This document shows positions 13,439-47,545 of a stretch of 64,000 nucleotides of DNA, one piece after another. Each line of letters opens with the position of its first letter. Positions within the stretch are counted from its first letter, which is position 1. The DNA comes from an uncultured delta proteobacterium (GTDB lineage Bacteria > Desulfobacterota > Binatia > UBA9968): assembly GCA_963745835.1 (NCBI GenBank), contig CAVUZH010000019.1, forward strand, positions 160,001 through 224,000, read 5' to 3'. The translations under genes and the position numbers were made by a program. The notes below the pieces were generated by a model. It was not told the origin of the DNA, made no database searches, and was given only the letters and a program-made list of their open reading frames with translations.

Positions 13439-13590
13439 CAGCCTGCTGAAAAAGCCCATAAGCTTCGTTGCGCTCGCCCGATTCGCTTCAACGTACTGAA
13501 GCGTACGCCTCAGCTCATCGGACTTCGCGCGCCTTGCTTCTGAGGTCTTTTTGAGCAGCCTGCATTCAGAGTTTTTTGGCAAACTTCTAG
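13436..13590 (+). mobile_element. MITE-like non-autonomous repeat, copy 1
   Basis: TAGCAGCCTGCTGAAAAAG...CTTTTTGAGCAGCCTGCA...TTTTTTGGCAAACTTCTAG; closely matches the reverse complement of 35100-35253; central CGTAC-N6-GTACG hairpin. Confidence 0.8.
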
Positions 13591-15524: not shown

Positions 15525-15555
15525 GGTCACACCCTCCTTTAAGTCGCCAGCGGAC

Positions 15556-16689
15556 TCAGACTCTGAGCCCATAGAGCCGAGCCGGATTGCTTTCGAGAAT
15601 CTTTAACTTCGCCGTATCGCCGATATCCTGTCGCTCTTTAACTTTTCGCACGACAAAAGGCTCACGGTCGCCGTGTGGCATGTCCGAGCCGAACACCATG
15701 TTGTCCTCTCCAACCAGCTCGATAACTTGGGGCAATAAAACATCGTCGGCCTCCGTGCTGAAAAAGAGATTGCCCTTTCGCACGTATTCCATCGGCGGTA
15801 AGTCATGTTGCGGCGCCGTTTGCGAATGGAAGGTGGAAAGCTGGTTACGCGTACGCCTAAAACGGTGATCCATTCTCTCGAGCACAAAATGAACCCACTG
15901 GCAACCTGCCTCCAAGAAGGCAACTCTCAAGTCAGGAAAGCGATCCAATACTCCGCCGCTTATCAACGCTACAAGTCCCATCATGACGGGCACAAGAAAG
16001 GCGATCACCCCCGACGGATAAATATGGCTATAGAGATTGTTGAGAGCCGGGCAGCTCCAGCCCACATGAACGGCTAACGCTAGCTTCTCTTCAGCGAGTG
16101 ACTCAAAGAATGGTAAAAGCGTCGGGTGATCGAATGTAAGATCACCGGCGGTGCCGAGAACCATCACCGCAGAGGCGCCCAGAGACTTGGCTTCTCGGAC
16201 TTGGCCAACAGCCGCTTGAACCTCGTCGAGGTTGACGATTGCGGCCCATTTGATCCGCTCGTGGTGTGCCAGTCGATCGCCCAACCAGCGATTGTAAGAA
16301 GAATAAAGCGCGGTCGCAAAAGCGATGTTCGATGTCAACGGGTAGGCAAGAAACAAGCTTGGGTACACGACCTGGATCGCGATATCCTCCGCATCCATCG
16401 AACGCAACCGTGCATGAACATCGGTGAGCTCCATGCTTTCAATACTGTCGGGCTTCAAAGCCGTATGTCTTGTCGGTATGCCGTCGTAACTTGCAGGCGT
16501 GCCAAGATTGTTGCACCCTCGCCCCACTCGTCGGGGAAACATTTGCTCGTCAATGATCCAATACGCTAGACCATCCCGGCCGATTACCGAAGGACGTTGA
16601 GACCGAAAGGCCGGCTCGAGATACTGATCACTGAACGTTGTCGGGCACTCTTCAACGTGACCGTCTGCATCGATGTACTTCATCACCAT
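15556..16689 (-). CDS. Amidohydrolase family 2 protein (metal-dependent decarboxylase/hydratase-like)
   Basis: IDADGHVEE, VVYPS, YNRWL, AVHVG, FLEAGC.W, FGSDMPHGD, NPARLYGL. Confidence 0.88.
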   Translation of the reverse strand: MVMKYIDADGHVEECPTTFSDQYLEPAFRSQRPSVIGRDGLAYWIIDEQMFPRRVGRGCNNLGTPASYDGIPTRHTALKPDSIESMELTDVHARLRSMDAEDIAIQVVYPSLFLAYPLTSNIAFATALYSSYNRWLGDRLAHHERIKWAAIVNLDEVQAAVGQVREAKSLGASAVMVLGTAGDLTFDHPTLLPFFESLAEEKLALAVHVGWSCPALNNLYSHIYPSGVIAFLVPVMMGLVALISGGVLDRFPDLRVAFLEAGCQWVHFVLERMDHRFRRTRNQLSTFHSQTAPQHDLPPMEYVRKGNLFFSTEADDVLLPQVIELVGEDNMVFGSDMPHGDREPFVVRKVKERQDIGDTAKLKILESNPARLYGLRV

Positions 16690-16701
16690 ACCTCCTGAAC
16701 T

Positions 16702-16887
16702 TAGTATGCTGCTGAAAAAGACCGATATGTTTCGTTGCGCTTAATCGCCTCGCTAGAATTCGTGTTCGTGTTAGCGTGTTCGTGCTCGTTCGGAATTCTC
16801 GATCACGTTTTCACGGACACGATCACGAGGATTCCGCCTTGTATCTTTTTGAGCAGCCTGCAAACAGGGTTTTCAAAAACCTGCTAG
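16702..16887 (+). mobile_element. MITE-like repeat, copy 2, with a different internal segment
   Basis: Same ends as copy 1 (TGCTGAAAAAG..TTCGTTGCGC; GCCTTG..CTTTTTGAGCAGCCTGCA..GGTTTTCAAAAACCTGCTAG) around a CGTGTT/CACG repeat hairpin. Confidence 0.72.
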
Positions 16888-18224: not shown

Positions 18225-19384
18225 TCAGACAAATTCAACAAAAATGGAATTCGCGAGCAACAATCCTTGAGCGGTAAGCCTGAGATTACCGTTTTTCTCG
18301 GTGATGAGCCCGGCTTCTCTCCACGTTTCTATCTTCGGATAGAACTCGACCGGAGACCTGCCAAAAGCTGAACGAAATGCTTCTAACGAAACTCCCGATG
18401 TCATTCTTAAACCTAAAAAAAGAAACTCACCTGCAGCTTTGTCTCGATCGATATTTTCCCGCTCAGTGATCGCAATACTGCTTTGATTGATGCGTGCCAT
18501 ATAGCGTCCGGGATTCTTCTCGTTGCTCCAACGCTCTCTCGCTATCGGGTCCACACCTATTTGTAAGTAACTATGGGCGCCGGCGCCGAGGCCGAGATAA
18601 TCGCCCAGTCGCCAGTAGTTTACGTTATGCCGCGAATAACAGTTCGACAAAGCGTAATTTGATATTTCATAACGCTTTAATCCGGCTGCGCCAAGTTTCG
18701 CTTCGATGAGTTCCGCCATGGCGATCTCTTCGTCCTCGGTTAATGCGCTCAGTCTGCCGCAGCGATACTCGTGGTGAAAAGGCGTGCCTTCTTCAAACGT
18801 CAGGTTGTACGCCGATAGGTGCGGCGATCGATATTCCAGCGCGGCATCTAGATCGTCTTCCAACTCCTTCAAAGTCTGGCCTGGGATTAGCGAAAATCAA
18901 GATCGAGACTGAAGTTATCGAACCCAGCTCTAACGACCACTTCGAGCGCTTTGCGCCCCTCCTCCGCTGTATGAACCCGGCCGAGAAATTTGAGCAGCCG
19001 AGGTTGAAAGGATTGGATGCCAACACTGATGCGATTGATTCCGGCATCGCGATAGCCGGAAAAATTGCCATAGTCGACAGTGCCGGGATTGGCCTCGAGG
19101 GTAATCTCGCAATTTGGATCGATAGGAAACGACGAAAAGGCGCGCTCCAAGATGACGCCGATGCTTGAAGGCGCGAAGGTGGACGGAGTGCCGCCGCCAA
19201 AAAAAATGGTTTGAACCGTTCGTCCCTGCCAATTCGGTGCGCTGGCGTAATGATCCAGCTCGCGGATCAAAGCATCCGTGTAGTCATGTTCAGGAATTTG
19301 CGCAACCACGTGAGAATTGAAGTCGCAGTAGGGGCATTTGCTGATGCAGTACGGGATATGAATGTAAAGCGAAAAGGGCTTCAT
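18225..19384 (-). CDS. hemW: Radical SAM heme chaperone HemW (two +1 indels near 18880-18900)
   Basis: YIHIPYCISKCPYCDF, FFGGGTPS, EITLEANP, RISVGIQSF, YEISNY, HNVNYW (HNxxYW), YLGLGAGAH. Confidence 0.92.
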
Positions 19385-19788
19385 GTTGACCGGCATGTTC
19401 CTAACATAAGATCGAAAACCGCAACCTACAACAGCGTCGATTGACAACAACCGCGGCAGATTTCGTGCTGGAAGTCCACGAGTTCACGATACAGCCATTC
19501 AGTGAGAGTCGCTTAAGCGAGTCAAAGCAGCTACGCCATCCGGTTCCCAAGGTGATCAGATCCATGACGTTTTGCAGGACCGAAGAAACCGGCACGCAGG
19601 TAGTTATATCAGTAACAGAGCCTCCCATGATCGACGGCCATGGGCAAATTGCATCCGGAACGAAGCAAAAGCGGCCATGAGTAAAACTCTTATTCTTTTC
19701 GACTTCTCTGAAATAACAATAACGTCACTAGGTTCCGCGCCGCTGCAGGGCATCTCCTTTGCTACTCACTGTGTCGAATGGGCGAAAC

Positions 19789-20665
19789 ATGGAAGTAAAT
19801 AACACCGAATTAAAGAAATCGAGCTGGCAAGCAAGCTACATTCTTGTAGCGCTTGTTCTGGTCCTTTTCAGTTATGGCTGCGCGATTTTTCGCGGCCTTT
19901 CCGAGTCTGAAGTTCAAAGTGAGCAGAGCCCGCCGGTTGTTTTTTATCAAAAACCGACTGATCCGGTCGTTTCGGATTCTCCCACACTGGTAAAAAATGA
20001 AAACAGCCGACCGGTCTTTTCGTCAAAGAAAGCTCTCAGTAAAGAGGAGATTCGTCAAATCCAAGCGCGGCTGAAGGCCGCCGGCTTTGACCCAGGACCA
20101 ATCGATGGCATTTTGGGATCTAAAACAAGGTCACTGATTTTGCGAGTTGAAGCGGGGTGTACGATACTCAATGAACTGGCAACCGCGAATGGGGAGCTCT
20201 TCGCGCCAGCGGCCGAGACACAAGCGCGCTGCCCTGACTGCTTCCGCAAACACTCTCAGCAAAACAGATATCCAGCTACTCCAGAAACGGCTGAAGGCCG
20301 CTGGGTTCTATGCCGGCCCTATCGATGGAATGCTAGGCGCTAGAACCAGATCGGCGCTTTCCCGATGCAAATCGGGATGCAGTGCGCTTAACGACCTTTC
20401 GGGAACTTCAGATAAACCGGTCTTCGAACAGGCTACAGAGATACAATCGTCACGCGCTCCCGCCTTTGCCCAACCAACCTCTTCGGTCGATAACGTCTCT
20501 GGGAATCAGGAAATCCGGCGAGTGCAGGAGCGGCTGAAAGCCGCCGGTTTTGATCCAGGCCCTATAGATGGGATTCTGGGCCCTCAAACCAAGTCGGCAC
20601 TCGAGAAGTACCGCTCTTCCCACAAGTTGACCCATTCAGGAATCGACGCCTTGCCTCACTACTGA
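19789..20665 (+). CDS. Putative lipoprotein with three peptidoglycan-binding domains (frameshift near 20230)
   Basis: Hydrophobic stretch ending SYGC; three IQ.RLKAAGF.PGPIDG.LG..T repeats, also visible as DNA repeats near 20068, 20288 and 20531. Confidence 0.8.
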
Positions 20666-22251: not shown

Positions 22252-25200
22252 CTACGGCAGCGCTAATGTGATTCTTGTGAAAATGGTTCTGTCAGGTCGT
22301 ATGCTGGCGTTGTTAATGTCTGGATCAAAATACTTGAACTTTTTGTCAAAAAGATTGCTCGCGCCAACGGCAATGAAACCATATCGCTTCGGCAGGCGAT
22401 AGCTGATTGCCGCATCGACGGTCCAAAAGTCATCGCTGCCGTGTCGAATAGTATTCCCGGTAAATAATCCGCCAAAGTTACCGTCTTGATTGTAGTATGT
22501 CCCGGTGACTGAGGCGCCGAATCCTGAGGGATGAAAAAAATTGATCCCTAAAGGAACACGGTGCGTATCCGCCTCGGTCACTCCCGCCGGGAATTGCCTG
22601 TCCCTTTCGAATCGCTCGAATATATATTGCGCTCTCAATGCCCACCATGGGTGGGGAGTCCAGAAAAGATAGGTACGGGCTAGTTTTTCTTCCCAGTCGG
22701 CTTCTTGGGTCGGAGGGTTGAGTAGGATTAGCTGCAAAATTCAAGAACGGAACTTTCAGATCCCGCTTGGAAAATTCTACGCCTCCGAATAGGTCCTTTG
22801 TAAACTTCTGATCGATAGCACCTCCATAGCGCCATGCCTCTGTTAGATTAAGATCGTCGAAGAATTGATTAAAACCGGCAACCTGTGTGGGCTCCAGGGT
22901 CTGTTGGGTGATCAGCGTTCTCTTCAAGGTCCGGAACGCAGCCGCACGAACGGTCGTGCCTGCAAATGGATTCCAGGTAATCCCGGTTTTCGGGTTGACC
23001 TGGTGCTTATCCTCACCCGGAAAATCGCCGGTCAGGGCGTCAAAGCTGACCCCAAGCGTAAAGGTCACATTCTTTATCAGGTTGATCTGGGAGTAGGAGT
23101 AAACATTGGCGTGATGGGTCACGAGGGGTGTGGTTGCTAGCCGGGTTAGTGTCGGAGGTGTAAGAGGAGGACCCGGTATGAGAGGAGGACCAACGGTTGT
23201 CAGACTATCCTGTTCTGCATTGACGTCGAAATATCCTCCGCCGCTCGTGAGATTAAAGTACCGCGAACGAAATAGGTGTTGGAGCTCGCCTCCGGCAGAA
23301 CGTTGATGAGGAATTTCAAACTCGACTAAACGAACTCCAGGTTGAGGAAACTGGTCATCTCTCTGCTTCGGATCGGTCACTTGATAGGTAAAATTGCCGA
23401 GAATGATCGAATTCGGCGAAAAGGAGTGCCGTGCACCCACGCGGATGGAGTTTCTCTCATCCTCGTTTCTTCGTCCGGGAAAGAAGTCTTGCGGGAAGAA
23501 TCTGAGTAGCAGATCGCCTGTATCGAGGTGTCTGTAGCGATATTCAGCCTGAACGCTTGTGTCAGGCGTAAGTTCCAGTTGTAAGAAAGCATTGGCGATA
23601 GTGTCTTTTTGATCACTATTTGTTCGGAACCCATCTGTTCGATAGTGGAATCCACCAAGGCTAAAGCCGGCATTTTTATAGATTCCGGAGAGAACTCCTT
23701 CTCCACTGTATGTGCTATTCTCGCCCGCCAGACCGCTTGTCTGAAACGTAACTCCGTCACGGTTGAAAATCGGATTAAACTCGTTAAAAGACAGCGCCCC
23801 CGGACCTCCGGCACTAATCAGAAACAAATTACTCTCTGCGAGCCGCGGTTGAATCGGCGTCATATTGAGTGGCTGAAGCAGTTGAGACTGGAGGAGCTCG
23901 CTGACGCGGGCGATCTCGTGACGCGGCAAAACGGAATACGAATCGGCAAGAAATCGGTGCGCGGAAAAGTTGCTTGGATCGGTATTGACGGACTTCCAAC
24001 CTTCCACCAGCGCAAGCTGCTGAAATCCTAAATCAGTGTAAATCCGCGCAAGGCTTGCGCTGCGCGCCGCCAGGTCGGCGTCGAGCTGCAGGCGAGAACG
24101 GTACACCGCGCGGTTCTCATTCAACTCGATCGCTTTCTCCATGTCTTGTAGAGCCTCGACAGGACGGTTTGTAGTTTGCTTTTGGATCGCATCGTAGAAG
24201 TAAGGCGTAGGATCCTTTGGGTCGAGTTCTTTAGCGGTGGTATACTCGCGTTCAGCTAACTCCGAGCGTTTTTCTTCGTAGTAGGCTTTGCCAAGATAGC
24301 TTCGAACAATCGAATTGTTCGGATCCAAGCTTTCGGCGATCTCGAGATCGCGTCTCCCATCTTCAAAATTACTTTCCCGGATCTTTGCTAAGCCCAGACC
24401 TAGTCTTGAGAGAGAGTCGGCCTGATCGAGCACAATAGCTTGTTCGAAGGCCGCCTTTGCCTCCTCCGTATTCACCCGCAGCAAATGGGCGAATCCCAGA
24501 ACCATCTGTGTTCTTGAAAGATTCGGATTGAGCGAGACCGCCTTTTGCGCCGCCGCCAGCGCTTCATCCAGTTCAGCGAAAGACATATGGAGCTCAGCTA
24601 GCCTGGCCCAAGCTAGAGCGTCATTCGGGTTTGCTCGCACGGCTTGTTGTAGGCTAGCTGCGGGCGCCTTCGAGATCGAAATTTGCCTGCTGGGCATAGG
24701 ATAGGGCGATCAGCGCTGAGGCTGACTTCGGATCGGCGGCAACGGCTTTTCTCGCGACACTGAGCGCTCTTTCCTTATCGTTTTGTACAACCGCAATAAT
24801 GGATTGCAGCGCCAGCGCATCGCCATAGTTCGGATTCAAGCTCAGCGCGCGCTCGATGTCTTTACTCGCCTCATCAACCCGGCCGACACCGAGCAGCAGT
24901 TGCGCACGGTAGGCGAAAAATCGCGGCTCCGTAACGTCGGCCGGCACATCCCTAATCGCCTCGAACGCCGCTTGGTAATCACCTTTCATGTAAGCGTCCA
25001 AAGATTTCTGAACCATGCCTCGCCACGGCTCCGGGCCTTGAAAGTCTTCAGCTCGAAAATATGTCACGGGCGGATAGTACAATGCCCATTGCACGGCATC
25101 GCGCGGACGGACAACGGTGCGCAGTACTGGGGCTCTTCCTTGCACGGCTTCTGCCGACTGACCATCTGTCAGCGACAGGCTGCCTGCGGCGTTGGCGGCC

Positions 25201-25689
25201 AGCACCTTGCCTTCGAATATCGTGACGAATGTCCGATCAGCAGCGACTTCTACTAGCCCCTCCGTTCCTTCCACACCTGCGTTTACGAACGCCGTATTGA
25301 TTTCGAGATTGCGTGGTAGACGGCTAAAAAAATGTAAGGCGCCCCGCGCCAACTCGATCAGCGAGGTTTGTTCTTCTCGTAGGCCCCCCAGAGTCACCGT
25401 GGTGTTCTGATCGAGACGAAGAAGCGGTTGGTTGACGAGCGCGAGGTCTGCCCTGCTTCTCTCGGCAACTTGGATCCTATCCCCCGCACAATAGCCGTCG
25501 TTCAGACGAGCCTGTTGCGACTGAGCCTGTCCAGCTCTCCGGACTTCTACATTTCCTTGGACCGAGACCATTCTGGCCACGACTGGATCACAGGGGGTCG
25601 CGCGCAGGAGAACTGGATGAGTGTGACAATACCGCAAGAACACTCGTCAGGAAAAAAGGAGAGAATAAGGACCGAGGTATGTTTTTCAT
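22252..25689 (-). CDS. Large FecR-domain + TPR + TonB-receptor-like beta-barrel outer membrane protein (about three frameshifts)
   Basis: FecR-like VSVQGNVEV..GDRIQV..INTAFVNAGVEGT; multiple TPRs (ALSLNPNY, AVSLNPNL, LDPNNS, LDPKDP); barrel with NPKTGITW..TTVRAAAF and DAAISYRLPKRYG..GASNLFDK; pieces at 24654-25643, 22478-24697 and 22252-22737. Confidence 0.85.
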
Positions 25690-25745
25690 GGCTGGTACTC
25701 TCCGCACGACTGCATCGACGTAAAGAAGGTAGAACTGCTACATTA

Positions 25746-27995
25746 TTATTTATCCTCCAGAGGAATGATTCCTTCCCAGTCTTCCTCGGGCGGGTTCTGC
25801 TTATATTGCTCACACAGCTTTATGTAAAAATGCGCGGAACCACCGATGCTGCCGTTATCGATGGCATGATGAAATTTTTCCTCGGCTTCGTCCCAAGACT
25901 TTCGTCTGAAGGCACTGAGAGCATCAGCAAATATTTCGCGAGATTTTTTCTGTTGTTCGTCGAATTCCTCGACCCGACACAACAACTCATGAATGGTTAG
26001 AGGTTGGCTTTTTCCTTTGAGCAAAAATTTCCCAAGCTCTGTAGTCAGTACACCATCTGTTTGCTCCAGAACCTCTTGCGATACCAAAATCTTAGTACCG
26101 AGATACTTATTCAGGCCGTCCATCCTCGATGCCGTATTGACGGTGTCGCCTCTGAGCCCATACTGGTAATACTCACCCGCGCCGATATTCCCATGGAAAA
26201 TTTCTCCGAAGTGGACCGCGACTCGCGTCGGCAAATTCACGTCTTTAAGCGAACCGTTAAAAAGATCTACGGCTTTGGCCAAATCCAAAGCAGCTAGGCA
26301 AGCTTGGTGTTTTAGTGCCGGCGAGGGTTGTGCGGCTTTCCATATGGCTAGAATCGAATCGCCCTTGAGCTCAACGATCAGGCCGCCGTTTCGCCGAATC
26401 GGCGTCAATGTCGCTTCGAAATATCGATGCATCAATTCAGTGAGCTGTTGGGGGTTCATCTTTTCCGACAACGTCGTATAACCTGCCACATCGGCAAACA
26501 GGCAGGCGCCGTATACCATTTGCCCGCTGTTTTTAATGTCGACGATGTTCTTGGCCAGCTGGTCGACGACCTCGTCCGGGACATAGTAGGCAAGAGCCTT
26601 TCGAATATGCTGGCGCTCTCGATTGGTCTCAACATAATTCCAGGCGACACCCGAGATGAATGCCAGTGGACTCTGTATAAACAACGGCACAAAAATCGGA
26701 TACCAGGTACCGTCGGCTGCGAACTGAAATTCCGCAGCCCAGAGGTAAACAAGACTCAACGCCAGCGTGCCGAAGATCGCGACCGTGAGCGAAGCGAGAC
26801 GACAGAGAATGCCGGTAACGATCCCCCACAAAAAAATGACGATTAGATAGCTGTATGGCCCGATGGGCTTCAAGGCGGTATCATGGAGCAGGTTGGAGAA
26901 CGCCGTAGCGGCAATTTCCACTCCGCCGATGAAAACCCCGTTGGCTTGCGAAAACACGGTGTAAAAACTGTCCTTTCTTTCCGCTAATATTCTTTCCGAC
27001 AGACCTACAAAGATTGCCTTACCTTTAAAATCTGGTGTTGCGCCGGCTATCCCTTCGCCGAGTTGGAGTGCTCGATGATAAGGGAGAGTCGTAATTGTTC
27101 CGGGCGGTCCATAGTAGTTTACGTATTGTCGACTTGAACCCCCGTAAAGTTTTACAAGAGACTTGAGCCATGAATTTGGTTCGCAGCAACTTGGGAGTCC
27201 GAGCGCTCCAGCTCTTCAATCATCCTGCGCTCGAAGGGATGGGTCGCTATCGAAGATATCTTTAATGTCCCTAACTACTTTTGACACGGCTTTCGCACTG
27301 ATCACTGTCTCCGAGTCGCCGGCAATTTCGCTGCTTCTGGCGGGCCTAGTTTTTTTAGCAGACGGATGAAGTCTTCGTATACTTTGATTGTGAATAGTTG
27401 GAACGCGACTACGGGAAAGGTGGGCGAGTCTCCGGTTCCTGCCTGAAACGTCCAGTACTGGTTTACCTTGAAAGGTATTCTGGGTAGTACAAACGGAGCT
27501 GTCGCGGCGGCCGATTGCGAGAAGGGAGCAAACGGCTTCATGATCTTTACGATGCGGTGCTCGCTGGCGTAGGCTCCCCCGGTGGCGCCCGGTATTTCTT
27601 TGGCCGTCAGCGCGTCAGCGAGCACAACGTTGCGCGCTTTCTGCATTGCCGCAGCAAATAACTTGTCATCATCGCTGTTCCGAGACTCGAGAAAGTGAAC
27701 ATCAAAAGTAATGACTGCCGCGCCTTGTTTTGACAGCTTGTCCACCAAGCGAGCATGTAGTGAACGAGGCCACTTATCAGGGTTGTCCGGGACGTTGAGT
27801 TGCTCCGATGACTCCCTGTCAATACTGATTACAACGGCATCTGAGGGCGCCTGCCTGACGCCTCTCAGTTTGAACAACAAGCCCAAACCAACGTCTTCCT
27901 CGAACTCGTGAGAGAATTGAAAAAAACTCAGAGATGAGGCCGATCAGACCTAAAAGTAAGCCTAAAGGTAGGGCCTTTAAAATCCGGGACATCAT
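25746..27995 (-). CDS. CHASE2-domain membrane-bound class III nucleotide cyclase with C-terminal TPR-like tail (frameshifted in the N-terminal half)
   Basis: CHASE2 motifs VVISIDRES, WPRS.HARL, ITFDVHF, GVEIAATA.SNLL; three TM helices; catalytic LFADVAGYTTLSE, ELKGD, GDTVNTASRM, LKGK. Confidence 0.9.
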
Positions 27996-28385
27996 TAATT
28001 TGCAGCCAGCCACCGAGCAAAAGGAATCGTCGACCCAGTTAAACGCGGTGTGGGATGAGGCTCTCCCATATCGCTAGCAGGGTACCGATGTCAAGTGGAT
28101 TAATTGTTACAAATTACAGTCGAAATACTTCCTGATAGGTCGAATTTCAGCGGACCGAATTCCGGCCCAAATCGAGTAAGACAAAAGTCGGAGGCGTAAC
28201 TCAGGCAGTCTCTTCGAGGCTCTCGCCGCAGACCCTTTGACAATGGTCAGCACCGCGGGTAAGTCGACGGACAAAATCCTAAAAGGGCATCGCTAAAATC
28301 ATCCATCAGATTTCAATCTGATCTTACCTTACATGTGATAATGATATAGTCCGCTGTGCCATTCAGTGATGGGCAGGAGAAAATC

Positions 28386-29945: not shown

Positions 29946-30187
29946 AAATCAAAGTTAAATTCTTTGCCATCTTGCGCGAGCGCGCCGGAACGGCGGAAGT
30001 CACCAAAGATATCCGAGATGGAAGCACGGTAACGGATCTTTGGCAGGCACTGCAGCAAGACTTTCCCAAATTGAATGTCGCCGGGATTCGCTTGTTGTAT
30101 GCGGTCAATCAGAACTACGTCAGCCCGGATTTCAAGCTGAGCGATCAAGACGAAGTGGTTTTTATTCCGCCAGTAAGCGGAGGATGA
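29942..30187 (+). CDS. moaD: Molybdopterin synthase sulfur carrier subunit
   Basis: VKFFAILRE, AVNQNY, C-terminal PPVSGG. Confidence 0.93.
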   Translation: MKIKVKFFAILRERAGTAEVTKDIRDGSTVTDLWQALQQDFPKLNVAGIRLLYAVNQNYVSPDFKLSDQDEVVFIPPVSGG

Positions 30188-30193
30188 GGATCG

Positions 30194-30634
30194 ATGTTTC
30201 GAGTTACCAACCAACCCATTGATCTACAAGAACTCGTGCGATTTGTCACCGATCCGGAAACGGGCGCCATCGCGACGTTCATTGGCACGACCCGCAATCA
30301 TAACGACGGCCGGAAGGTGATCGCGCTCGATTATGATGGATACCCGGAAATGGCGGAGAAAGAATTGGCGCGTATTGGCGCGGCCGCGCGCAAACAGTGG
30401 CAGATTTGCCGGATGGCTATCGTTCATCGCCTGGGTCCGGTGCAGATCACTGAAGCGAGCGTGATGATCGCCGTTTCCTCGGGTCATCGAGAGGCGGCGT
30501 TTGCCGCGTGCCGATTTGCCATCGAGGAGATTAAGAGAACCGTGCCGATCTGGAAAAAAGAAGTTTTTGAAGGTGGTGAAGTTTGGATCGGAACGCAAAC
30601 TGGAGAACCGCTGGCGCAAAAAGATGAAGGATGA
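30194..30634 (+). CDS. moaE: Molybdopterin synthase catalytic subunit
   Basis: GAIATFIGTTR, HRLG, SSGHREAAF, IKRTVPIWKKE. Confidence 0.95.
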   Translation: MFRVTNQPIDLQELVRFVTDPETGAIATFIGTTRNHNDGRKVIALDYDGYPEMAEKELARIGAAARKQWQICRMAIVHRLGPVQITEASVMIAVSSGHREAAFAACRFAIEEIKRTVPIWKKEVFEGGEVWIGTQTGEPLAQKDEG

Positions 30635-30686
30635 TGGAACGGATGCGGCAAGACTTGCGCCAGGCTCTTTGCTCACAGCCGCTTGC

Positions 30687-31337
30687 TCAGTTTTTCTCGA
30701 GCATTTTTCCACGCACTCGAGCGCGCAGCCAAACAATCGCGCCAATAATGCTCAGGATCAAGATTGCTGAGACAATACCCTCGGCTCTATCAAGGCCTTT
30801 AGCAAAACCCTGGTACGTCTCGCCTAGTCCCCAGCCAAGATAGCCCAGTAAAAGACAGCGTGGGATAGCTCCGTAGAACGTCCAGAGGCTGAATTGCTTG
30901 AGCGGCAAACGAAGCAATCCGGCCGCTGCGGAAATGACCGAGAGCGGAAATATCGGCAGCGCCCGTAAAAAGAAAATGGTGGTGTTCACCCGTCCACCCT
31001 GAAAACGCCGTTCCAGCGCCTCGACATCGCTCCAGTTAAATCCAAGAAATCCCTTCCATCGATCGACCACAGTTTTGCCGCCGAAGTAGCCGATGCCATA
31101 GCCGATATAGGCGCCAAGCGTTGAGGCGACGGATCCCGGTAGAACGATCTGTAGAAGTATCGGCACGAGCGCTTCGAAGAAGCTGAGCTGCGGGCTGATC
31201 AACACGAACCCGGCGCCCATGATGATTAGCGGTGATGGAATCGGCACGATTACCGATTCGATGATGACGCCGATGAAGACGCTCCACGCTCCGTAAGAGC
31301 GAATCGACTCCATGATCCAATTTAGAATTGCGGCCAC
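30687..31337 (-). CDS. DedA family membrane protein
   Basis: IIESVIVPIPS, IGYFGG, FFLRALP..SVISAAAG, LGYLGW.LG. Confidence 0.88.
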   Translation of the reverse strand: MAAILNWIMESIRSYGAWSVFIGVIIESVIVPIPSPLIIMGAGFVLISPQLSFFEALVPILLQIVLPGSVASTLGAYIGYGIGYFGGKTVVDRWKGFLGFNWSDVEALERRFQGGRVNTTIFFLRALPIFPLSVISAAAGLLRLPLKQFSLWTFYGAIPRCLLLGYLGWGLGETYQGFAKGLDRAEGIVSAILILSIIGAIVWLRARVRGKMLEKN

Positions 31338-31529
31338 GGTTTATGTCTCCCAATCGAATTTGTGCCAGGGTAACAGCTTCAATGATTTAAGTTAAGGGAA
31401 ACGTTCCGGCGATATTCCGACAGGCCTGCCACAGAGGTCCCCGCGATGTCGGCGCTGGAAAAACACCCGGCCACGGAATGATTGAGCGGCGGAAAGCGGT
31501 GCCGTTTGGGGGGCGGGCGAAACCTAAAG

Positions 31530-32258
31530 TCAATCGATACGATGAACCGCGTCTTGCGGAAGAGAAGCGAGCAAGGTCTTGAGCGCCCCATCAAGGTAGT
31601 CCGAGTCTTTGGATTCCAACGTGACTTTTACCTTGTAGTCCGGCAGATCTAGAACGGGGTAGGAGCCAAGAAGCAGATGGGGGAACTTCGCCAGTAAATC
31701 GTTGAGTGCGGAGGCGATGACACCTTCGCCGTATCTGACAAAAACATTTTTAAGAAAATAAGGCGCACCGCGAAAGCGTTCTTTGATGGCATCAAAGCGC
31801 TCCTGAAGAATCCGCGGGATGCCGGGAAAAATATAAACATTGTGGATATTGATGACCGGGGCAAAGAGCGCTTCGGTGGCCAAAAGCACGGCGCCTTCTG
31901 GAACATTGGCCATTCTCAAGCGCGCCTCGTTAACGTCCCCGCCCAGGCGTTGGCGCATCCGGTTCTCTATTTCCGGATGCCGGACGACCGGCACAGAGAA
32001 CCCTCGGGCTATCCCTTCGATGGTGACATCGTCATGGGTCGGGCCTATGCCGCCGGTGGTGAAAACGAAATCGAATCGTTTTGAAAAATACGCCGCTTCC
32101 TCACCGATGAGATCGATCTCGTCCTGAATCGTGGAAATTTTTTGAACCTCGACGCCAAGCCGTCGGAGCTCAACGCACAAAAAATGAGAATTTGTGTCGT
32201 GGGTCTTGCCCGAAAGAACCTCATTGCCGATGATGATGATGCCGGCGGTTTTCGACAT
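31530..32258 (-). CDS. CinA-like molybdopterin-binding domain protein (competence/damage-inducible protein A family)
   Basis: IIIGNEVLSG...DTNS, TTGGIGPTHDDVT, IFPGIP, LGSYP. Confidence 0.88.
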   Translation of the reverse strand: MSKTAGIIIIGNEVLSGKTHDTNSHFLCVELRRLGVEVQKISTIQDEIDLIGEEAAYFSKRFDFVFTTGGIGPTHDDVTIEGIARGFSVPVVRHPEIENRMRQRLGGDVNEARLRMANVPEGAVLLATEALFAPVINIHNVYIFPGIPRILQERFDAIKERFRGAPYFLKNVFVRYGEGVIASALNDLLAKFPHLLLGSYPVLDLPDYKVKVTLESKDSDYLDGALKTLLASLPQDAVHRID

Positions 32259-32300
32259 GACTAATCTTCTTTCTTAAGCGCGCCTGACGGGCAAGATCGA

Positions 32301-32474
32301 TCAAAGATCGAATTCGCTGCAGCTCATGAAAAAATGACAATGGGAATTCGAGCAAAGGTAACGGCACTTTTGATTGAACATCCTCGAACCACAAATCGGA
32401 CAACATTCCCACCAGCTTTGCGGCGTCTTGTCATCATCGTGAGCTGATTCTAATCGATGGGTAGAAGGTTCCAT
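32301..32474 (-). CDS. Small CPxCG-type zinc-finger protein (57 aa, absent from the ORF track)
   Basis: Manual translation MEPSTHRLESAHDDDKTPQSWWECCPICGSRMFNQKCRYLCSNSHCHFFMSCSEFDL. Confidence 0.7.
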   Translation of the reverse strand: MEPSTHRLESAHDDDKTPQSWWECCPICGSRMFNQKCRYLCSNSHCHFFMSCSEFDL

Positions 32475-32723
32475 GACGACAATATAGCAACAAACGAGTA
32501 GTGGAGAAAAGCTTTATCGTGGACACTCATCTGTCTGCATCCGCATATTGTTGCTCGATCGAAGATCGGCTGCCGAGTTTGCTAACTGGATGTTGATTCT
32601 AACCGGCACAATCACGATCGCCGCCACTTACCGACGTTGGACATTGCCGCGACCGCATAATATATTTTCTACGCTCCTCTGATCGGAAGAGAACCGCAAG
32701 CTGCGCGATGCCTTGAAGTCAAT

Positions 32724-33029
32724 ATGAATCAGGGTCCCCCCCAAACTCTTGAAGACTATAAGGCCGAGCGACGTCGTCAGCGCTGGGCTTATTTTCTGAT
32801 GCCGTTCTTTACCGTTGGTTCGATCGTTATCTCGGTGGCAATGCTGATGTTCTTTGGAAAGGCTTGCCAGGATCGAATACCCGCCGACGCTCCCCTGCGC
32901 ACCTCACCCCTGTTCAAGCAGTACCATCAGCCGCAAAAGCAACAGGGCGGCCTTGACGATCCCAGCAGGGCGCCTGACTCATTTCCAGCGGAGAACCGCC
33001 TACCCGCTCCCGCAGAAAAGAGCCAATAG
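32724..33029 (+). CDS. Small hypothetical single-pass membrane protein
   Basis: One hydrophobic helix (WAYFLMPFFTVGSIVISVAMLMFFG) after a basic N-terminus. Confidence 0.6.
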   Translation: MNQGPPQTLEDYKAERRRQRWAYFLMPFFTVGSIVISVAMLMFFGKACQDRIPADAPLRTSPLFKQYHQPQKQQGGLDDPSRAPDSFPAENRLPAPAEKSQ

Positions 33030-33138
33030 ATCTCTGGCATCAATGACTGTTAAGTGGAGATGTCCGGAGCGCCGCATGTGGGAGCCTGGCTCACAGCGCC
33101 ATCGTTCCTGATATTGCCGGCTGTCTGCGCGTTCGGCC

Positions 33139-34917
33139 TCAATCCTGCTGAACTCCGAACCGGCGAGCAAACAGATAATAGCTCACCGCGACGCTCACCA
33201 AGATCGCCGTCCAGATCACACTGAATGCCGCCAGCTCGCCTACCTGACCATTTTCCCACAGCTCGTAAATAGCGACTGACACCACCGGTGTCTGCGGGCT
33301 TACCAAAAGAATCGACATGGAGAGTTCTTTGGCTGAAAGCAAGAAGACGAATACCCATCCGCCGAGAAACGACGGCATAATCAGCGGCAAGGTGATCCGG
33401 CGCATGCAGTTAAGCCATGAGGCGCCGGAAACATACGAGGCTTCTTCCAGTTCCTTGTGCAACTGCAGCAAACCTGAATGCGTATAGCGGATGCCGTAAG
33501 GGATGTACCTGGTAACGAACGCGAGCAATAGGATCCATAGAGTACCATAGATAGGTATCGGCACATTCAGATAAAACCGCATGATCGCCAACCCCATGAC
33601 GATCCCGGGAAAAAGTAGCGGCAGTGTCGTTAACAGGTCCAACAGCCAACGCCCGCGCAGCTTGCTCCGAACCAGTATCCACGATGCCAATGTCGTCAGC
33701 ACCATCACTACAGTCGCGCTCGCCAAGCCTAACAAAATGCTGTTCTTGATCGAGGCGGTGATTTTCGGGAAGTGAAGCGCCAGAATGTAATTCTTCAGGG
33801 TAAATTTTGAGATCGCCTCAAGTGATGGCTGGATATAGAACGGCAGCAGAGAAGCCCAGAGAATAATCAGAAATGGCAGCACCAGCAGGACGAACGCATA
33901 GAACAGCAACCCGGCAGCGCTAAGATAGCGCCAGCGGCCGAGCCGGATTAGCGCCGGTCGATAACCCTTTCCCGTTACCGTGTGGAATCGATCACCGTCC
34001 CGGGTAACTCGAAAATAAACATACAAAGTCGCCGCGACCACCACCATGAGCAGAACGGCGAAAGCACCGGCATTACCGTACTGCGGCGGCAGTCGTTGCG
34101 CATCCTGATAGATCGAAGTTGTGAGCACACGAATATCACCGGGAAGTCCGACCAAAGCCGGAATTTCAAACGATTCGAACGCGCGAATAAAGATCAGCAG
34201 GAGCACCGAAAAAAACGCCGGCAGCATCAAGCGCAGTGAGATTCGCCGCAAAGTCTGCCAAACCCTGGCGCCACAGGCAGCCGAGGCCTCCTCCAGCGAT
34301 GGGTCCATTGACCGAAAAGAAGCCGCCAGCATGAGGAATACGAACGGCGACCAAAGCAATGCTTCAATGAAGATCATCCCTGCCATCGAGTAAACGTTGA
34401 TCACCGGCGTGTTCTGATTGAACAGAATCTTCAACCAGTGATTGACCGGACCGGCTTTGCCGAGCAGCAAGATCCAGCCAATCGTGTACAGGATGAACGG
34501 CGTTCCAAAGGAGGCGAACGCGGTAAAGTAGCCGAGCCCGCGCAGCGGCGTGTCGGTGCGGGTAACCACCCACGCAACCATGCCGCCGATCAGCGTCGCC
34601 AATAACGCGCTGCCAATAGAAAAATAAATCGTATTAAGGAACGGCCCCAGCACCCGCAACTCGCGCAGCAGCTCTTCATAGTAGCGCAAAGTGAACTGAT
34701 CCAGTTCGCCGGTAAAAGTGGTTGTAAACAGGCTGGTCTGGATAACCGAGTAAAGCGGCGGCAGTACCAGATAGGCGGTGATCAACGTGACGACGATCAT
34801 CACCCAAGACTCGATCCCGAAGCGCGAGCCCATGCTCAATGGGAAAACCCGGCGGCGCGCCGGCACGGTTGCGGATTGCGCAGACAGATTAATGTCGGTT
34901 GATTGTTGCCGGTTCAT
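33139..34917 (-). CDS. ABC transporter permease, FbpB-type
   Basis: MDPSLEEASAACGA, TVTGKGYRP, ELEEASYVSGA; paralogue of 10655-12406. Confidence 0.92.
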   Translation of the reverse strand: MNRQQSTDINLSAQSATVPARRRVFPLSMGSRFGIESWVMIVVTLITAYLVLPPLYSVIQTSLFTTTFTGELDQFTLRYYEELLRELRVLGPFLNTIYFSIGSALLATLIGGMVAWVVTRTDTPLRGLGYFTAFASFGTPFILYTIGWILLLGKAGPVNHWLKILFNQNTPVINVYSMAGMIFIEALLWSPFVFLMLAASFRSMDPSLEEASAACGARVWQTLRRISLRLMLPAFFSVLLLIFIRAFESFEIPALVGLPGDIRVLTTSIYQDAQRLPPQYGNAGAFAVLLMVVVAATLYVYFRVTRDGDRFHTVTGKGYRPALIRLGRWRYLSAAGLLFYAFVLLVLPFLIILWASLLPFYIQPSLEAISKFTLKNYILALHFPKITASIKNSILLGLASATVVMVLTTLASWILVRSKLRGRWLLDLLTTLPLLFPGIVMGLAIMRFYLNVPIPIYGTLWILLLAFVTRYIPYGIRYTHSGLLQLHKELEEASYVSGASWLNCMRRITLPLIMPSFLGGWVFVFLLSAKELSMSILLVSPQTPVVSVAIYELWENGQVGELAAFSVIWTAILVSVAVSYYLFARRFGVQQD

Positions 34918-35099
34918 GCGCGACAAAATACCTCGCTTCGAAGCTAGTCTCCGCCACAATCGAAAGTCAAGATGAATCGACGCAGATTACCCGGTTCCGG
35001 TGTTTTGACAATGTGTATTGATTAAGGGAACCTGGACGAGCTAAGGCACAGAACGAACAAGGTCATCATATCAGCCTACCAGCGAACCGAGGCAGCATA

Positions 35100-35253
35100 C
35101 TAACAGTTTACTAAAAACTCTGTATGCAGGGTGCTCAAAAGATATCAGAGGGAAAACGCGTGAAGCTCGATGAGCTGAGGCGTACGCTTCAGTACGTTGA
35201 AGCGAGTCGGGCGAGCGCAACGAACCCTATGAGTCTTTTCAGCAGCCTGTTAA
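35100..35253 (-). mobile_element. MITE-like repeat, copy 3 (inverted relative to copy 1)
   Basis: Reverse complement TAACAGGCTGCTGAAAAGACTCATAGGGTTCGTTGCGCTCGCCCGACTCGCTTCAACGTACTGAAGCGTACGCCTCAGCTCATCG... aligns with 13436-13590. Confidence 0.82.
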
Positions 35254-36347
35254 TTCATGAATTGCTTCTGAAAATAATCCACCCAGTCATTGCCTTTCTC
35301 GAACTGAGCTTCCGGGGTGATGTAGAGCGCTTTGTTGAAACGGCCGCCGCCCGGCTTTAGGTCCGGTTGTTTTGCCGGAACCTTGGGGTGGGACGGCAAA
35401 TAGTTGACCTGTTGAAATACCTTTTGTCCTCGTTCGGACAGGATAAAATCCAGGAAAAGCATCGATGCATGCGGGTGCGGCGCTCGTGAGGCGAGGGCAA
35501 TGGTATTGAGGGTTGCGGTGGCAGGCTCTAACGCCTGCCAATCCACCGGCGCTCCGGCGGTTTTGCTGATGTGAGCATGATGATTGAAAATATGCAGCGC
35601 GATCGGATACTCGCCAGCGATCACCAGGTCCAGTAGCTGTCGATTGCTGGCCGTGCTCTTGGCTATATTCTGCGCCTTTAATTTTTGCAGGTACGCCTTG
35701 CCGCCGCTATCTCCCATAGATTGCAGAACGTTGCCGATAAACATCGGCGCGCCGGAACCGCGGCTGGTAGACCACATCATCTGGCCTTTCCAACGCGGGT
35801 TGAGAAGATCTTCATAGGTTTTCGGCACCTCATTGGGCTTGACCAAACGGGTGTTGTAGCCGAGTGCAAAAAAGTAAACGTTGGTCGATGCCCAATTGCC
35901 TTGCGGGTCTCTTGTTTCCGCCGAATGCTCGGCCAGATAAGGTGAATGGAAACGCTGTAAGAAGTTGGCTCGCCGTATCATCGCTGCCGTCACCGTTCCA
36001 TCAAGCAAATCTACGTCGTAACGCTTGGCCTGGTACTCGCTAAACATCCTTTGGACGATCCGTTCGGAATTGGCGCGGAAGAACTCGACCTGAATGAAAG
36101 GGTACTCTTTCTCGAATGCTGCTGTAACCGGACGCACCACCTGATCGACGATCAGCGAAGTATACCAGGAAATTTTTCCTTCTTTCTTCGCTCCTTCGAC
36201 AAGAATCTTCTGCCGATCGGGCTTGTTGAGCAGGGCAATCTCTTCCACCGACGCGGCGCGCGCGCTCGGTAGTGTAACGGCTGCGAACGTAATCCCCAGA
36301 AAAAGGGTCGACACCAACAACTTGCTTGAGAGACGCGGATCGATCAT
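35250..36347 (-). CDS. ABC transporter substrate-binding protein (Fe3+-like cluster)
   Basis: Signal peptide; GAKKEG.ISWYTS, YNTRLV....VPKTYEDLLNPRWKG, APHPHA.MLF.DF. Confidence 0.88.
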   Translation of the reverse strand: MIDPRLSSKLLVSTLFLGITFAAVTLPSARAASVEEIALLNKPDRQKILVEGAKKEGKISWYTSLIVDQVVRPVTAAFEKEYPFIQVEFFRANSERIVQRMFSEYQAKRYDVDLLDGTVTAAMIRRANFLQRFHSPYLAEHSAETRDPQGNWASTNVYFFALGYNTRLVKPNEVPKTYEDLLNPRWKGQMMWSTSRGSGAPMFIGNVLQSMGDSGGKAYLQKLKAQNIAKSTASNRQLLDLVIAGEYPIALHIFNHHAHISKTAGAPVDWQALEPATATLNTIALASRAPHPHASMLFLDFILSERGQKVFQQVNYLPSHPKVPAKQPDLKPGGGRFNKALYITPEAQFEKGNDWVDYFQKQFMN

Positions 36348-36380
36348 CTTTACACCTCCTGCGAATGAGAGCGACGCGTT

Positions 36381-37397
36381 TTACTTGAGAATGTCTTTTA
36401 GCTTGGCCACCACGTCCGGTTCGGCTCCATAGATTTCCAGCACTGTCTTCTCGAGATCTTCCCCGCTGAGCGGGCTTAAGTCGAGCTTTGACTTGGTGGC
36501 GTCGGCGATGAATTCCGGATCCTTCATCGTATCCATAAATGCCCTGCGCAGAAGAGCGATCCGATCCTTGGGAGTGTCAGGCGGGAGGACGTAGGGCCGG
36601 GCCACGGGATTATAGTTGTGCATGCCCAGGTGAATCACCTTTCGGTCGAGCTCCGTTTTGGCATAGTCGATCACCCGGCGCACGTTGGGAAGTTCCGGAT
36701 GCGGCTTTGCAATCGCTTGAAGAATCATGAGCACTTCGCCGGCGTCTACTTCCTTGCGCCAGGTTGATTTAAACGACTCCCAGGCGCTCGTGAGGCCGTC
36801 AATCTCGCCGCTGTTGAACGCCAAACGAACCTCCGCCGTGCCTTTGTAGCCGGAGACTACCTGAATCGGAGCGTTGATCGTCGCTATGGCGATTTTCGTG
36901 AGATCGTCGGTGGCAGAGCCGGCGCCGACGCCGCCGAACTTCACCATGGTTCTCGACGCCAGCCACTTGTCGGCATTTGTGATGCCTGATCTCTTTGACA
37001 CCGCGAGCATCTGACTGTCCTGTGCCGGCGCTCCGATATAGCCGAATTTTTTGCCGTCAAATTCGACGCCCGGCTTGCCTAAAACCTGTTGCAGGAACAA
37101 ACCGCCGAGAAAATGACCGATGGTGAGACCGTCAGGCTTGGCAACTTTGTATACGTGATTGGCTGCGATAAGACTTCCCGCTCCGACCATGTTTTCCACT
37201 ACAACGGCAGGGTTTCCAGGAATATGCTTGCCGTAGTGGCGCGCCACCGTGCGCGTATAGACGTCATAGCCACCGCCGGCTGAAAGACCTACGATGATAC
37301 GGATGGTTTTGCCCTTGTAGAACTGTTCTTGAGCCGACGCCTGCCCGGTCGACCACAAGCAAGCGAGCAAGCACAGAAGAAGACGTGTTCCAGGCAT
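36381..37397 (-). CDS. Bug/TctC family substrate-binding protein
   Basis: FYKGKTIRIIVG.SAGGGYD, ENMVGAGS, KPDGLTIG, GYKGT, RPYVLPP. Confidence 0.9.
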   Translation of the reverse strand: MPGTRLLLCLLACLWSTGQASAQEQFYKGKTIRIIVGLSAGGGYDVYTRTVARHYGKHIPGNPAVVVENMVGAGSLIAANHVYKVAKPDGLTIGHFLGGLFLQQVLGKPGVEFDGKKFGYIGAPAQDSQMLAVSKRSGITNADKWLASRTMVKFGGVGAGSATDDLTKIAIATINAPIQVVSGYKGTAEVRLAFNSGEIDGLTSAWESFKSTWRKEVDAGEVLMILQAIAKPHPELPNVRRVIDYAKTELDRKVIHLGMHNYNPVARPYVLPPDTPKDRIALLRRAFMDTMKDPEFIADATKSKLDLSPLSGEDLEKTVLEIYGAEPDVVAKLKDILK

Positions 37398-37502
37398 TGC
37401 CCAGTCCTCCTCATTCCTCAGGTTAGATTCTCAACATACTTGCCAATTCGTTACCTGATTGTCTTGCGGCATCGATGATTTGCCGGTACCACGATCTCAC
37501 CC

Positions 37503-37607
37503 GGTTCAATCGCTTCGCTATTCAGCCGTTCAATCGTTCTACGTCAGATCTCCGGAGCTCTGTCTTTGAATAGCGCGAACGCGGTTGAATTTTTGAACCG
37601 TTGAACG
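37503..37607. repeat. Short-period palindromic (REP-like) repeat built from GTTCAA/TTGAAC units
   Basis: GGTTCAATCGCTTCGCTATTCAGCCGTTCAATCGTTC...TTTGAATAGCGCGAACGCGGTTGAATTTTTGAACCGTTGAACG; the arms are complementary. Confidence 0.6.
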
Positions 37608-37640
37608 ATGCCCTCATCTAGCGACAGAAATCCTTGGAGA

Positions 37641-37669
37641 GCTGTAGTTGAAACCAAAAAAGCTGTCAA
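37641..37669 (-). promoter_or_regulatory. Possible sigma70 promoter for the TctC/SBP genes
   Basis: Minus strand TTGACA-17 nt-TACAGC. Confidence 0.45.
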
Positions 37670-37992
37670 GCTATGAGCACAGCGCCGAAATCGGAAAAAT
37701 GATTGGCTCGATTCGAGTCACTGGATAGGGGGATCATCTCTGAGAGGTGCAGCATCGTTGAGCATCGAACGATGAGCTGCTCTGCCAGTAGGTATCGCCG
37801 GGCGCGCTCACTATTAGTTTAGACGTTGTTACCCGGTTTTAGGCCGATGAAGTTATCCGCGAAGCAGACAATACAATCTTTGGCGGGAATCGTCAGGAAA
37901 TGGTTTGTCGACCGAGCCGCAACTATCTTGGTCGATCGTTTATACCAAGGACAGTCGCTCGGTCGAGTCTTTCACTGTCGTATGCCGACCGG

Positions 37993-39003
37993 TCACTTCT
38001 GCGCATAGAGTTTCTTTATGAAACCGCTCTTGTCCAGCTCGGCCATGAGGCTCGGGTCCATGAACTCCTCCGGTTTGCGACTGCGAATCTCCGGCCTGGT
38101 TTGCGCGACATAGTCGTAGGTGGCTTCGAGCCCGTTCATGATCGGATAAGGCACGGATATGAAATCCTGCCGAAATATTTCGTAGGAGCCTTCTAGAAGT
38201 TCCTGATCGTTGGTGCGCAGATATTTACCAAGAACTTTCATGCTGAAGTCCTTGTGTGTTTTAAAGTAGGCTATCGCTTCGACATGGGACCTGAGCATGC
38301 GCATCACTGTATCACGGTCGTCTTGTAGAGTTTTCCGCCGGGTGACGACTGACATCGACGGGTAGACCACCTCTTTTCTGGCGTCCCAAAGGACGTGATA
38401 GCCCAGCCGCAGCGCCTGGGCATCAATCGGATACGACAGGTCTGCGGCATCTGCCCGGCCCGACGACAGCGCCTGAAGCCGCTCCTGCGGCGTGCCGATG
38501 GACAGCCAGATGACGTCGCGCATCGGATCCATACCGTTCTTCCGGATGATGTACTTAAAAAGAAAATCGCCGAGGGATCCTATGCTTGAGGTCCCGATCC
38601 TTTTTCCTTTGATATCCTCGGGCCGTTTGATTTCCTGCTTCACGAGCAGTTTGCTCTGGACTCCCGGGACGGTATGAGCGATGTTCACCAGATCAGCACC
38701 TGCGAGATTGGCCAGCATCACTTGCGGAACGGCAACCGGCGCGGCAAAGAGGCTGCCGCCGAGAATCGCGCTCGACGTCTGGCCTGACCCTTTGACTAGA
38801 ACCAACTCGACATCGAGTCCATGCTTCTCATAAATCTTCGCGTCTTTGGCGATCCACGGAATCCAATTGGATGCGGACAAGGACGTGACTCCCCAGCTGA
38901 TCTTTTTCAGTTGCTTATCTTGCGCCTCGAGCGAACCTATCCCGCCAAGCGCGATTGTCAGGAGCGCGATTGAAAATATTTTTCCTGCCGATATCTTCGC
39001 CAT
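37993..39003 (-). CDS. NMT1/SsuA/TauA-type substrate-binding protein
   Basis: Signal peptide; WIAKD..IYEKHGLDVELV, IKRPEDIKGKRIG, ERLQAL.SG..DAA. Confidence 0.87.
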   Translation of the reverse strand: MAKISAGKIFSIALLTIALGGIGSLEAQDKQLKKISWGVTSLSASNWIPWIAKDAKIYEKHGLDVELVLVKGSGQTSSAILGGSLFAAPVAVPQVMLANLAGADLVNIAHTVPGVQSKLLVKQEIKRPEDIKGKRIGTSSIGSLGDFLFKYIIRKNGMDPMRDVIWLSIGTPQERLQALSSGRADAADLSYPIDAQALRLGYHVLWDARKEVVYPSMSVVTRRKTLQDDRDTVMRMLRSHVEAIAYFKTHKDFSMKVLGKYLRTNDQELLEGSYEIFRQDFISVPYPIMNGLEATYDYVAQTRPEIRSRKPEEFMDPSLMAELDKSGFIKKLYAQK

Positions 39004-39044
39004 GCTTCACAACCTCCGAATTTAGCGCTCCAGTTCGCCTTTAT

Positions 39045-40115: not shown

Positions 40116-40119
40116 TAAC

Positions 40120-42066: not shown

Positions 42067-42343
42067 GTATGCACCCTCCTGAACGATATTTCACCGGGAG
42101 TGAAAAACGAACGGATTCTATTTGAGGTTCAGCGGCTGCGCAAGAGGCCAATCGAAGCAGATCCCCACTCAGGTTTTCGATCGAGAGCGTGGAAGAACGC
42201 CAAGCAGTACGGTTGGTTCAATCCGTCGGGCGGCATCTGAGAAGCGATGACACGCGACAAAATAATTGCACAGCGATGCGAGTGCCGATGAGCTTCTACC
42301 CATCGTGTGAGCCAGCAACTGCTCGTCCCTAATCTCTACGTTT

Positions 42344-47378: not shown

Positions 47379-47545
47379 GCTTCAACCTTCGCAAAGTATC
47401 GGCAGGGATCTGCCGAAAATGCGATCGCCATGAGCGGCTAAAACAGCAGAGCCAAGTTGGCGCCATTTCGTGCGCGTCCAACTCACCATGCGTAATCTTA
47501 GTCTATGATATACCGCGATAGACCGCGCTCGCGTCAGCCTTCGCC

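Follow-up and report, generated by a model that had tools for sequence, protein, structure and literature searches.

Does the CHASE2-linked class III nucleotidyl cyclase encoded in the 64,000-nucleotide stretch analysed here make cyclic GMP (cGMP)? The stretch, hereafter the window, comes from an uncultured delta proteobacterium of the Binatia (lineage UBA9968; assembly GCA_963745835.1, contig CAVUZH010000019.1, positions 160,001 to 224,000), and a sequence-only reading had singled out the cyclase as a candidate cGMP producer on account of its base-specifying residues. The gene appears to encode a periplasm-sensing CHASE2 receptor cyclase that most likely prefers GTP and makes cGMP, because its specifying pair is the Glu/Gly of Cya2 from Synechocystis; we give this reading as a whole slightly less than an even chance.

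The cyclase is a single gene (25746-28013, - strand), which is composed as follows:

25746-26957, - strand: intact open reading frame (ORF) of 403 residues, the C-terminal, membrane and catalytic part of the CHASE2 cyclase gene
26001-26504, - strand: class III catalytic domain, Pfam PF00211 (Guanylate_cyc), residues 152-319, E 3e-18
26958-28013, - strand: N-terminal half, with a signal-anchor helix and the periplasmic CHASE2 domain, in alternating frames

The 403-residue ORF holds, in order, the end of the CHASE2 region, three hydrophobic membrane helices (read off the translation rather than called by a prediction tool), a cyclase-transducer linker, the catalytic domain and a C-terminal extension of about 75 residues. 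Its PF00211 match scores 66.5 bits against a curated cut-off of 21.9, and 50 cyclase sequences of the PDB match the catalytic domain at E <= 0.001 in HMMER. The AlphaFold2 model of this domain has a mean predicted local distance difference test score (pLDDT) of 88.8, and every match listed for it by Foldseek is a class III cyclase, with target-normalised TM-scores of 0.84 for CyaB (PDB entry 3r5g) and 0.81 for Cya2 (PDB entry 2w01). In the N-terminal half, CHASE2 (PF05226) is recognized on the piece 27302-27886 (E 8e-16). All of the 120 full-length homologues listed, mostly of about 750 residues, carry PF05226 and PF00211 according to a precomputed Pfam column. Both domains are also present in the intact homologue P0001, a protein of 773 residues that is 95% identical over the 403-residue query; the ORF is collinear with residues 371-773 of P0001 and shows no gap against them, in agreement with the earlier claim that the catalytic half is free of frameshifts.

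Two positions of the class III active site specify the base, namely Lys with Asp, Thr or Ser in adenylate cyclases and Glu with Cys in animal guanylate cyclases (positions 1 and 2 in the following). The active-site residues of the window cyclase, with the number of changes that some of them undergo on the 279-sequence tree described below, are:

26490-26492, - strand: metal-binding Asp156 (LFADV), 0 changes on the tree
26370-26372, - strand: Glu196, codon GAG, first base-specifying position (ELKGD), aligned with Cya2 Glu488
26358-26360, - strand: metal-binding Asp200 (ELKGD), 0 changes on the tree
26157-26159, - strand: Gly267, codon GGG, second base-specifying position (YGLRGD), aligned with Cya2 Gly562
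26124-26138, - strand: transition-state Asn274 (26136-26138) and Arg278 (26124-26126) of VNTASR, 2 changes each on the tree

The metal-binding Asp pair and the Asn/Arg pair are kept at the sites where the sequence-only reading had placed them, and with these residues the catalytic machinery of the window cyclase is complete. The specifying pair also stands at the codons given for it: when aligned by HMMER with PDB entry 2w01, Glu196 and Gly267 coincide with the Glu of 'idEfmGD' and the Gly of 'kyGvvG', respectively, and the first of these columns is Lys in PDB entry 6fht, the engineered E488K variant of Cya2. As controls of the mapping, S. meliloti CyaK was read as Lys...Ser, and 80 cyclase loci collected with a generic motif gave Lys/Thr in 64 cases, Lys/Ser in 3, Asp/Arg in 7 and other pairs in 6. 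Ten studies, most of them on metagenomes of soil or rhizosphere, supplied 20 public runs that contain part of the stretch, and contigs of four runs from four studies were used as independent sequence. Those of run X8 match the window without any difference over 25700-26234, 26254-26376 and 26347-26411, covering both specifying codons, and a contig of run X5 (about 95% identical) differs at 26157 by a C>G change that turns GGG into GGC and is synonymous. The codons thus recur in independent sequence, and none of the 120 closest homologues has Lys at position 1.

The pair Glu/Gly is known from Cya2 (sll0646 of Synechocystis sp. PCC 6803), which is regulated by its CHASE2 domain (PMC5995499), combines the specifying pair Glu488 and Gly562 with a strong preference for GTP (PMC6005667, PMC4215837) and is converted to an adenylate cyclase by the E488K substitution (PMC5995499). 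What the sequence-only reading had stated of Cya2, that is CHASE2, Glu plus Gly and GTP preference, matches these sources (PMC5995499, PMC4215837, PMC6005667). In Cya2 the Glu is assisted by a Lys, the Gly acts with a Tyr and Arg450 is listed as the structural equivalent of an Arg of the animal enzyme (PMC4215837, PMC6005667). The two enzymes are alike in architecture, with CHASE2, membrane helices, a class III cyclase domain and a C-terminal extension in both, and they share the Glu/Gly pair, the metal-binding Asp residues and the Asn/Arg pair. We estimate that the intact window enzyme would prefer GTP with a somewhat better than even chance; it is once the chance of a real pseudogene is counted that the reading as a whole falls just below even.

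Several observations weigh against cGMP production, and some of them come from Cya2 itself. The identity between the two catalytic domains is about 25%, and Foldseek ranks Cya2 19th, with several adenylate cyclases ahead of it; neither sequence nor fold brings the window domain nearer to Cya2 than to adenylate cyclases. At the columns equated with Arg450, the supporting Lys and the Tyr of Cya2, the window enzyme has Ala, Gln and Ser, with the supporting Lys taken as the residue two before Gly562 and the Tyr as the residue before the catalytic Arg, column equations of our own. The window cyclase further differs from Cya2 in being paired with an NsrA-like gene and in a Glu/Gly state that seems to have arisen within an Asp/Arg family. 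As a separate observation, the more distant cyclase of locus L028, in the related genome G013 and at 31% identity, has Glu/Gly together with Lys and Arg at the Cya2 helper columns, and its active site is closer to that of Cya2 than is the active site of the window enzyme.

The absence of the helper residues, as equated, would also fit a different enzyme: an adenylate cyclase, or a cyclase of relaxed purine specificity, in which the base is not set by position 1 and Glu belongs to a set of polar residues that this site tolerates. Variation in the family is relevant here. A trimmed alignment of the 120 closest full-length homologues (61-95% identity) shows Asn at position 1 in 83, Asp in 20, His in 11, Glu in 3, Ser in 2 and Gln in 1, in active sites that are otherwise very similar, and position 2 is Gly in 119 and Ala in 1. 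We sampled the wider family by scanning 1.84 billion proteins, grouped into clusters at 50% identity, in one HMMER pass that gave 710 cluster representatives at E <= 1e-30. Among the best 150 representatives, position 1 is Asp (104), Asn (26), Gln (7), Glu (3), Lys (3), Gly (3), Ser (2), Arg (1) or His (1), and position 2 is Arg (110), Thr (13), Ala (11), Gly (3), Gln (3), Ser (3) or other or unread (7), the commonest pair being Asp plus Arg. We consider this alternative possible but doubtful: the adenine-specifying Lys is missing in 120 of the 120 close homologues, position 1 is conserved inside clades, and in the enzymes with data considered here, Cya2 and the animal cyclases, Glu at this position gives GTP preference.

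The history of the two positions was followed on a FastTree tree of 279 catalytic domains (the window, 264 of 270 domain-spanning proteins and 14 loci), a sample biased to close relatives; one of its rows, L012, belongs to the unpublished genome G012 and is also counted among the Asn/Gly orthologues and among the seven loci with an adjacent FecR gene. The window lies in a five-member Glu/Gly clade (support 1.0), all five members of which have Glu, down to 80% identity. This clade is nested in an Asn/Gly clade of 87 to 107 tips, itself within a 131-member clade with Gly at position 2 (support 1.0; inferred ancestor Asp/Gly), which in turn is nested in the Asp/Arg family. The Glu/Gly pair would therefore have arisen inside this family, and as the tree indicates it is young, derived and convergent with the pair of Cya2 rather than inherited with it; Cya2 is absent from the tree, and its identity of about 25% excludes it from the Glu/Gly clade. 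The strand beside position 2 reads 'YYQYGLRGD' in the Glu clade and 'HYEYGPTGD' in its Asn/Gly sisters. Over the whole tree a minimum of 34 changes falls on position 1 and a minimum of 22 on position 2, compared with a column median of 54 and with 0 to 2 changes for the catalytic residues. Because these counts are below the median and fall in the more conserved third of columns, positions 1 and 2 are constrained inside clades, and they switch between clades. Yet at least 34 changes, with Glu found at position 1 in about six separate lineages, mean that position 1 may not decide the substrate in this family.

Names among the homologues include Methylomirabilota and Binatia; a single-protein scan of genome contigs found just one close relative. 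Asp/Arg cyclases of the wider family were also seen at locus L062 of the cultured methanotroph Methylobacter luteus IMV-B-3098 and at loci L054-L059, and the labels of the metagenome-assembled genomes that hold Asp/Arg loci are Chromatiaceae, Gammaproteobacteria, Syntrophobacter and Betaproteobacteria. One literature search with CHASE2, cGMP and cyclase, in a limited literature, returned no Asp/Arg or Asn/Gly cyclase, and no assay of any member of the family was found in the literature.

Other bacterial cyclases do not restore a simple rule. Rv1900c (Asn/Asp) and Rv0386 (Gln/Asn) of Mycobacterium tuberculosis are adenylate cyclases with minor guanylate cyclase activity; like the family members described above they have a residue other than Lys at position 1, but they have no CHASE2 and neither has Glu. 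XC_0250 of Xanthomonas campestris and the Rhodospirillum centenum enzyme are bacterial class III domains that make cGMP without the Glu/Cys pair of the animal enzymes (PMC3770947). They are soluble proteins without CHASE2, and Leu/Ala replaces Asn/Arg and Ala occupies a specifying position (PMC3770947), whereas the window enzyme keeps the canonical residues. Known bacterial guanylate cyclases thus share no single residue rule, because XC_0250 has Ala at a specifying position and lacks the Asn/Arg pair, and this too counts against an argument from residues. Mutants of M. avium Ma1120 can be cited on both sides: of the mutants made, the double mutant with the exchanges Lys-to-Glu and Asp-to-Gly was the most active as a guanylate cyclase, and the triple mutant was equally specific for ATP and GTP rather than GTP-specific (PMC4215837).

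Class III homologues that make cyclic CMP or cyclic UMP exist in the Pycsar systems (PMC10249747), and the residue pairs of the window cyclase's family match no assayed enzyme. One may then wonder whether the product is something else, a pyrimidine cyclic nucleotide or a linear one, or whether the protein is a catalytically silent sensor. Against this, each of the six catalytic positions holds its canonical residue and the architecture is that of a signalling receptor; we regard such readings as very improbable.

The genome itself provides further context. Reading the motifs of its other cyclases by eye, we found Gln/Thr in L001, L004 and L007, Arg/Gly in L002 and L005, which are receiver-domain fusions, and Asp at position 1 in L009; L006 is frame-broken at the motif and L008 is without the first half of the domain. 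Lys at position 1 was seen in no other cyclase of the genome with a readable motif. Noncanonical residues are therefore common in this organism, which again favours an enzyme whose base choice does not depend on position 1. The window contains no gene for a protein that binds cyclic nucleoside monophosphates (cNMPs), a further point on the unfavourable side. Outside the window, the genome encodes seven cNMP-binding proteins: two CRP-type regulators, a hybrid histidine kinase, a patatin fusion, a TPR fusion, a Popeye-like protein and a single-domain protein. Taken together, the idea of a cGMP producer stands as far as the Cya2 residue pair and the receptor architecture are concerned, and is weakened by the variable position 1, by the differing helper residues and by the lack of any special closeness to Cya2.

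Upstream of 26957 the gene is broken, which the sequence-only reading had not stressed. Against the intact P0001 and the orthologue in a sister genome (93% nucleotide identity), the N-terminal half shows four one-base insertions or deletions (indels), near 27930 (+1), 27317 (-1), 27233 (+1) and 27181 (-1), with a net sum of 0. Five of five contigs crossing 27174-27318, from four studies, have an intact frame, and they cover three of the four sites; the site near 27930 is covered by no run, which leaves a gap in the case for an intact gene. To obtain a baseline, 20 contigs of the sister genome were compared with the source assembly: 26 of 140 ORFs (of at least 200 residues) show a persistent frame switch in the source assembly, or 0.28 per kb, and a looser count of gaps inside long ORFs gave 145 that are not multiples of three against about 13 that are. 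Two other attempts at a baseline were uninformative: long-ORF coverage per contig ranges from 0.58 to 0.85 (0.67 in the window) and does not separate good from bad regions, and window positions 30000-49999 share 3.6 kb of orthologous DNA with the sister genome, too little to serve as an error baseline.

Since the frames of relatives are intact and about one in five ORFs is broken genome-wide, the indels of the sensor half are probably assembly errors, as these comparisons suggest. The other explanation is that the cyclase and its neighbour, a FecR-TPR-barrel gene described below, are real pseudogenes in the window strain, which would then have no full-length sensor. The density of switches speaks for decay: there are four in the 2.3 kb of the cyclase gene and three in the partner, whereas the genome-wide rate is 0.28 per kb, a count of four is reached by just 2 of the 140 other ORFs, and rpoB and rpoC, together 8 kb, are unbroken. 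In addition, no contig of the four compared runs carries the indels of the window at the three crossed sites. These points tell against a functional receptor, but decay on the scale of 26 of 140 broken ORFs is far above what is plausible for a free-living genome of 7.3 Mb, and the ratio of 145 to about 13 is the pattern of error and not of evolution. Moreover, the indels alternate +1, -1, +1, -1 and cancel out, each piece, read in its own frame, still closely resembles the sister protein (identity at 222 of 286 residues, out-of-frame parts included) and the catalytic half is intact. We therefore consider real pseudogenes unlikely. The assembly as such carries many indel errors, and its gene calls need care. 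Three unrelated genes of the window are split as well, coding for a TctC receptor, for a radical SAM/HemN_C protein and for a PG_binding protein, at 14477-15572, 18225-19450 and 19759-20665; in each case the ORFs overlap and hold successive parts of one Pfam profile or protein.

Directly downstream of the cyclase lies the partner gene:

22255-25646, - strand: partner gene of about 1130 residues with FecR, TPR repeats and a C-terminal barrel-like part, from Pfam and the match to NsrA

Its three frame switches are near 25603, 24656 and 22740. The partner is collinear with S. meliloti NsrA, although the match is weak (three segments, 24-32% identity, E 5e-9 to 9e-4), and its C-terminal part matches the barrel region of NsrA. 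A FecR gene is found directly downstream of the cyclase in seven of eight orthologous loci, the eighth ending at a contig border; the cyclase and the FecR-TPR-barrel gene are a conserved two-gene module. On pSymB of S. meliloti, a 1197-residue FecR-domain gene, which we took as nsrA, adjoins cyaK, and signal perception in this organism requires NsrA and CyaK together (PMC7529298, PMC13001267). In both systems a CHASE2 cyclase thus stands beside a long protein with FecR, TPR and a C-terminal barrel. They differ in that the gene order is reversed, that CyaK, with Lys...Ser, is of the adenylate cyclase type whereas the window enzyme has Glu/Gly, and that the catalytic domains are 29% identical.

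By analogy with NsrA and CyaK, the FecR-TPR-barrel partner would perceive a signal at the outer membrane and relay it to the periplasmic CHASE2 domain and from there to the cytoplasmic cyclase. The class III catalytic domain, presumably working as a homodimer, would convert GTP to cGMP, and one of the seven cNMP-binding proteins of the genome might read the cGMP.

The window has a few other features. A dispersed intergenic repeat of about 140 nucleotides is located at 35113-35252, with an inverted copy at 13436-13576 and a partial copy at 16693-16754; the two complete copies share 86% identity, and at least 20 contigs of the sister genome hold copies at 73-90% identity. Rfam reports no family in the window at the gathering threshold. 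The ORF at 36381-37397 (- strand) matches many contigs of the sister genome at 66-73% nucleotide identity and belongs to a large multi-copy gene family. At about 45893, within the ORFs 45678-45998 and 45827-46918, the sister genome has a 19-base tandem duplication that the window does not have.

We may finally ask what the family as a whole makes. Asp can accept from guanine N1-H and N2-H2, a role that it also has in the GTPase motif NKxD, and O6 can be served by Arg as a donor. Because Asp plus Arg is in this way chemically complementary to guanine, it is conceivable, although distinctly unlikely in our estimate, that the Lys-less, mostly Asp/Arg CHASE2 family produces cGMP throughout, with the window enzyme as one tip of it. 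If this were true, many bacteria of soil and sediment and many methanotrophs would use cGMP signalling with NsrA-like receptors, and with each switch between Asp/Arg, Asp/Gly, Asn/Gly and Glu/Gly a single guanylate cyclase scaffold would have been retuned. The proven bacterial cGMP makers in the literature consulted are few (Cya2, XC_0250 and the R. centenum enzyme), and the window enzyme may be added to them as a candidate from an uncultured soil lineage. The residue pair of Cya2 seems to have had more than one origin. There is more to be gained from the family context than from the gene by itself, since the family offers a natural series of Asn, Asp, His and Glu on a near-identical scaffold for the study of purine choice, and the pairing with an NsrA-like gene extends the S. 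meliloti scheme, from the outer membrane to a cyclase, far beyond rhizobia.

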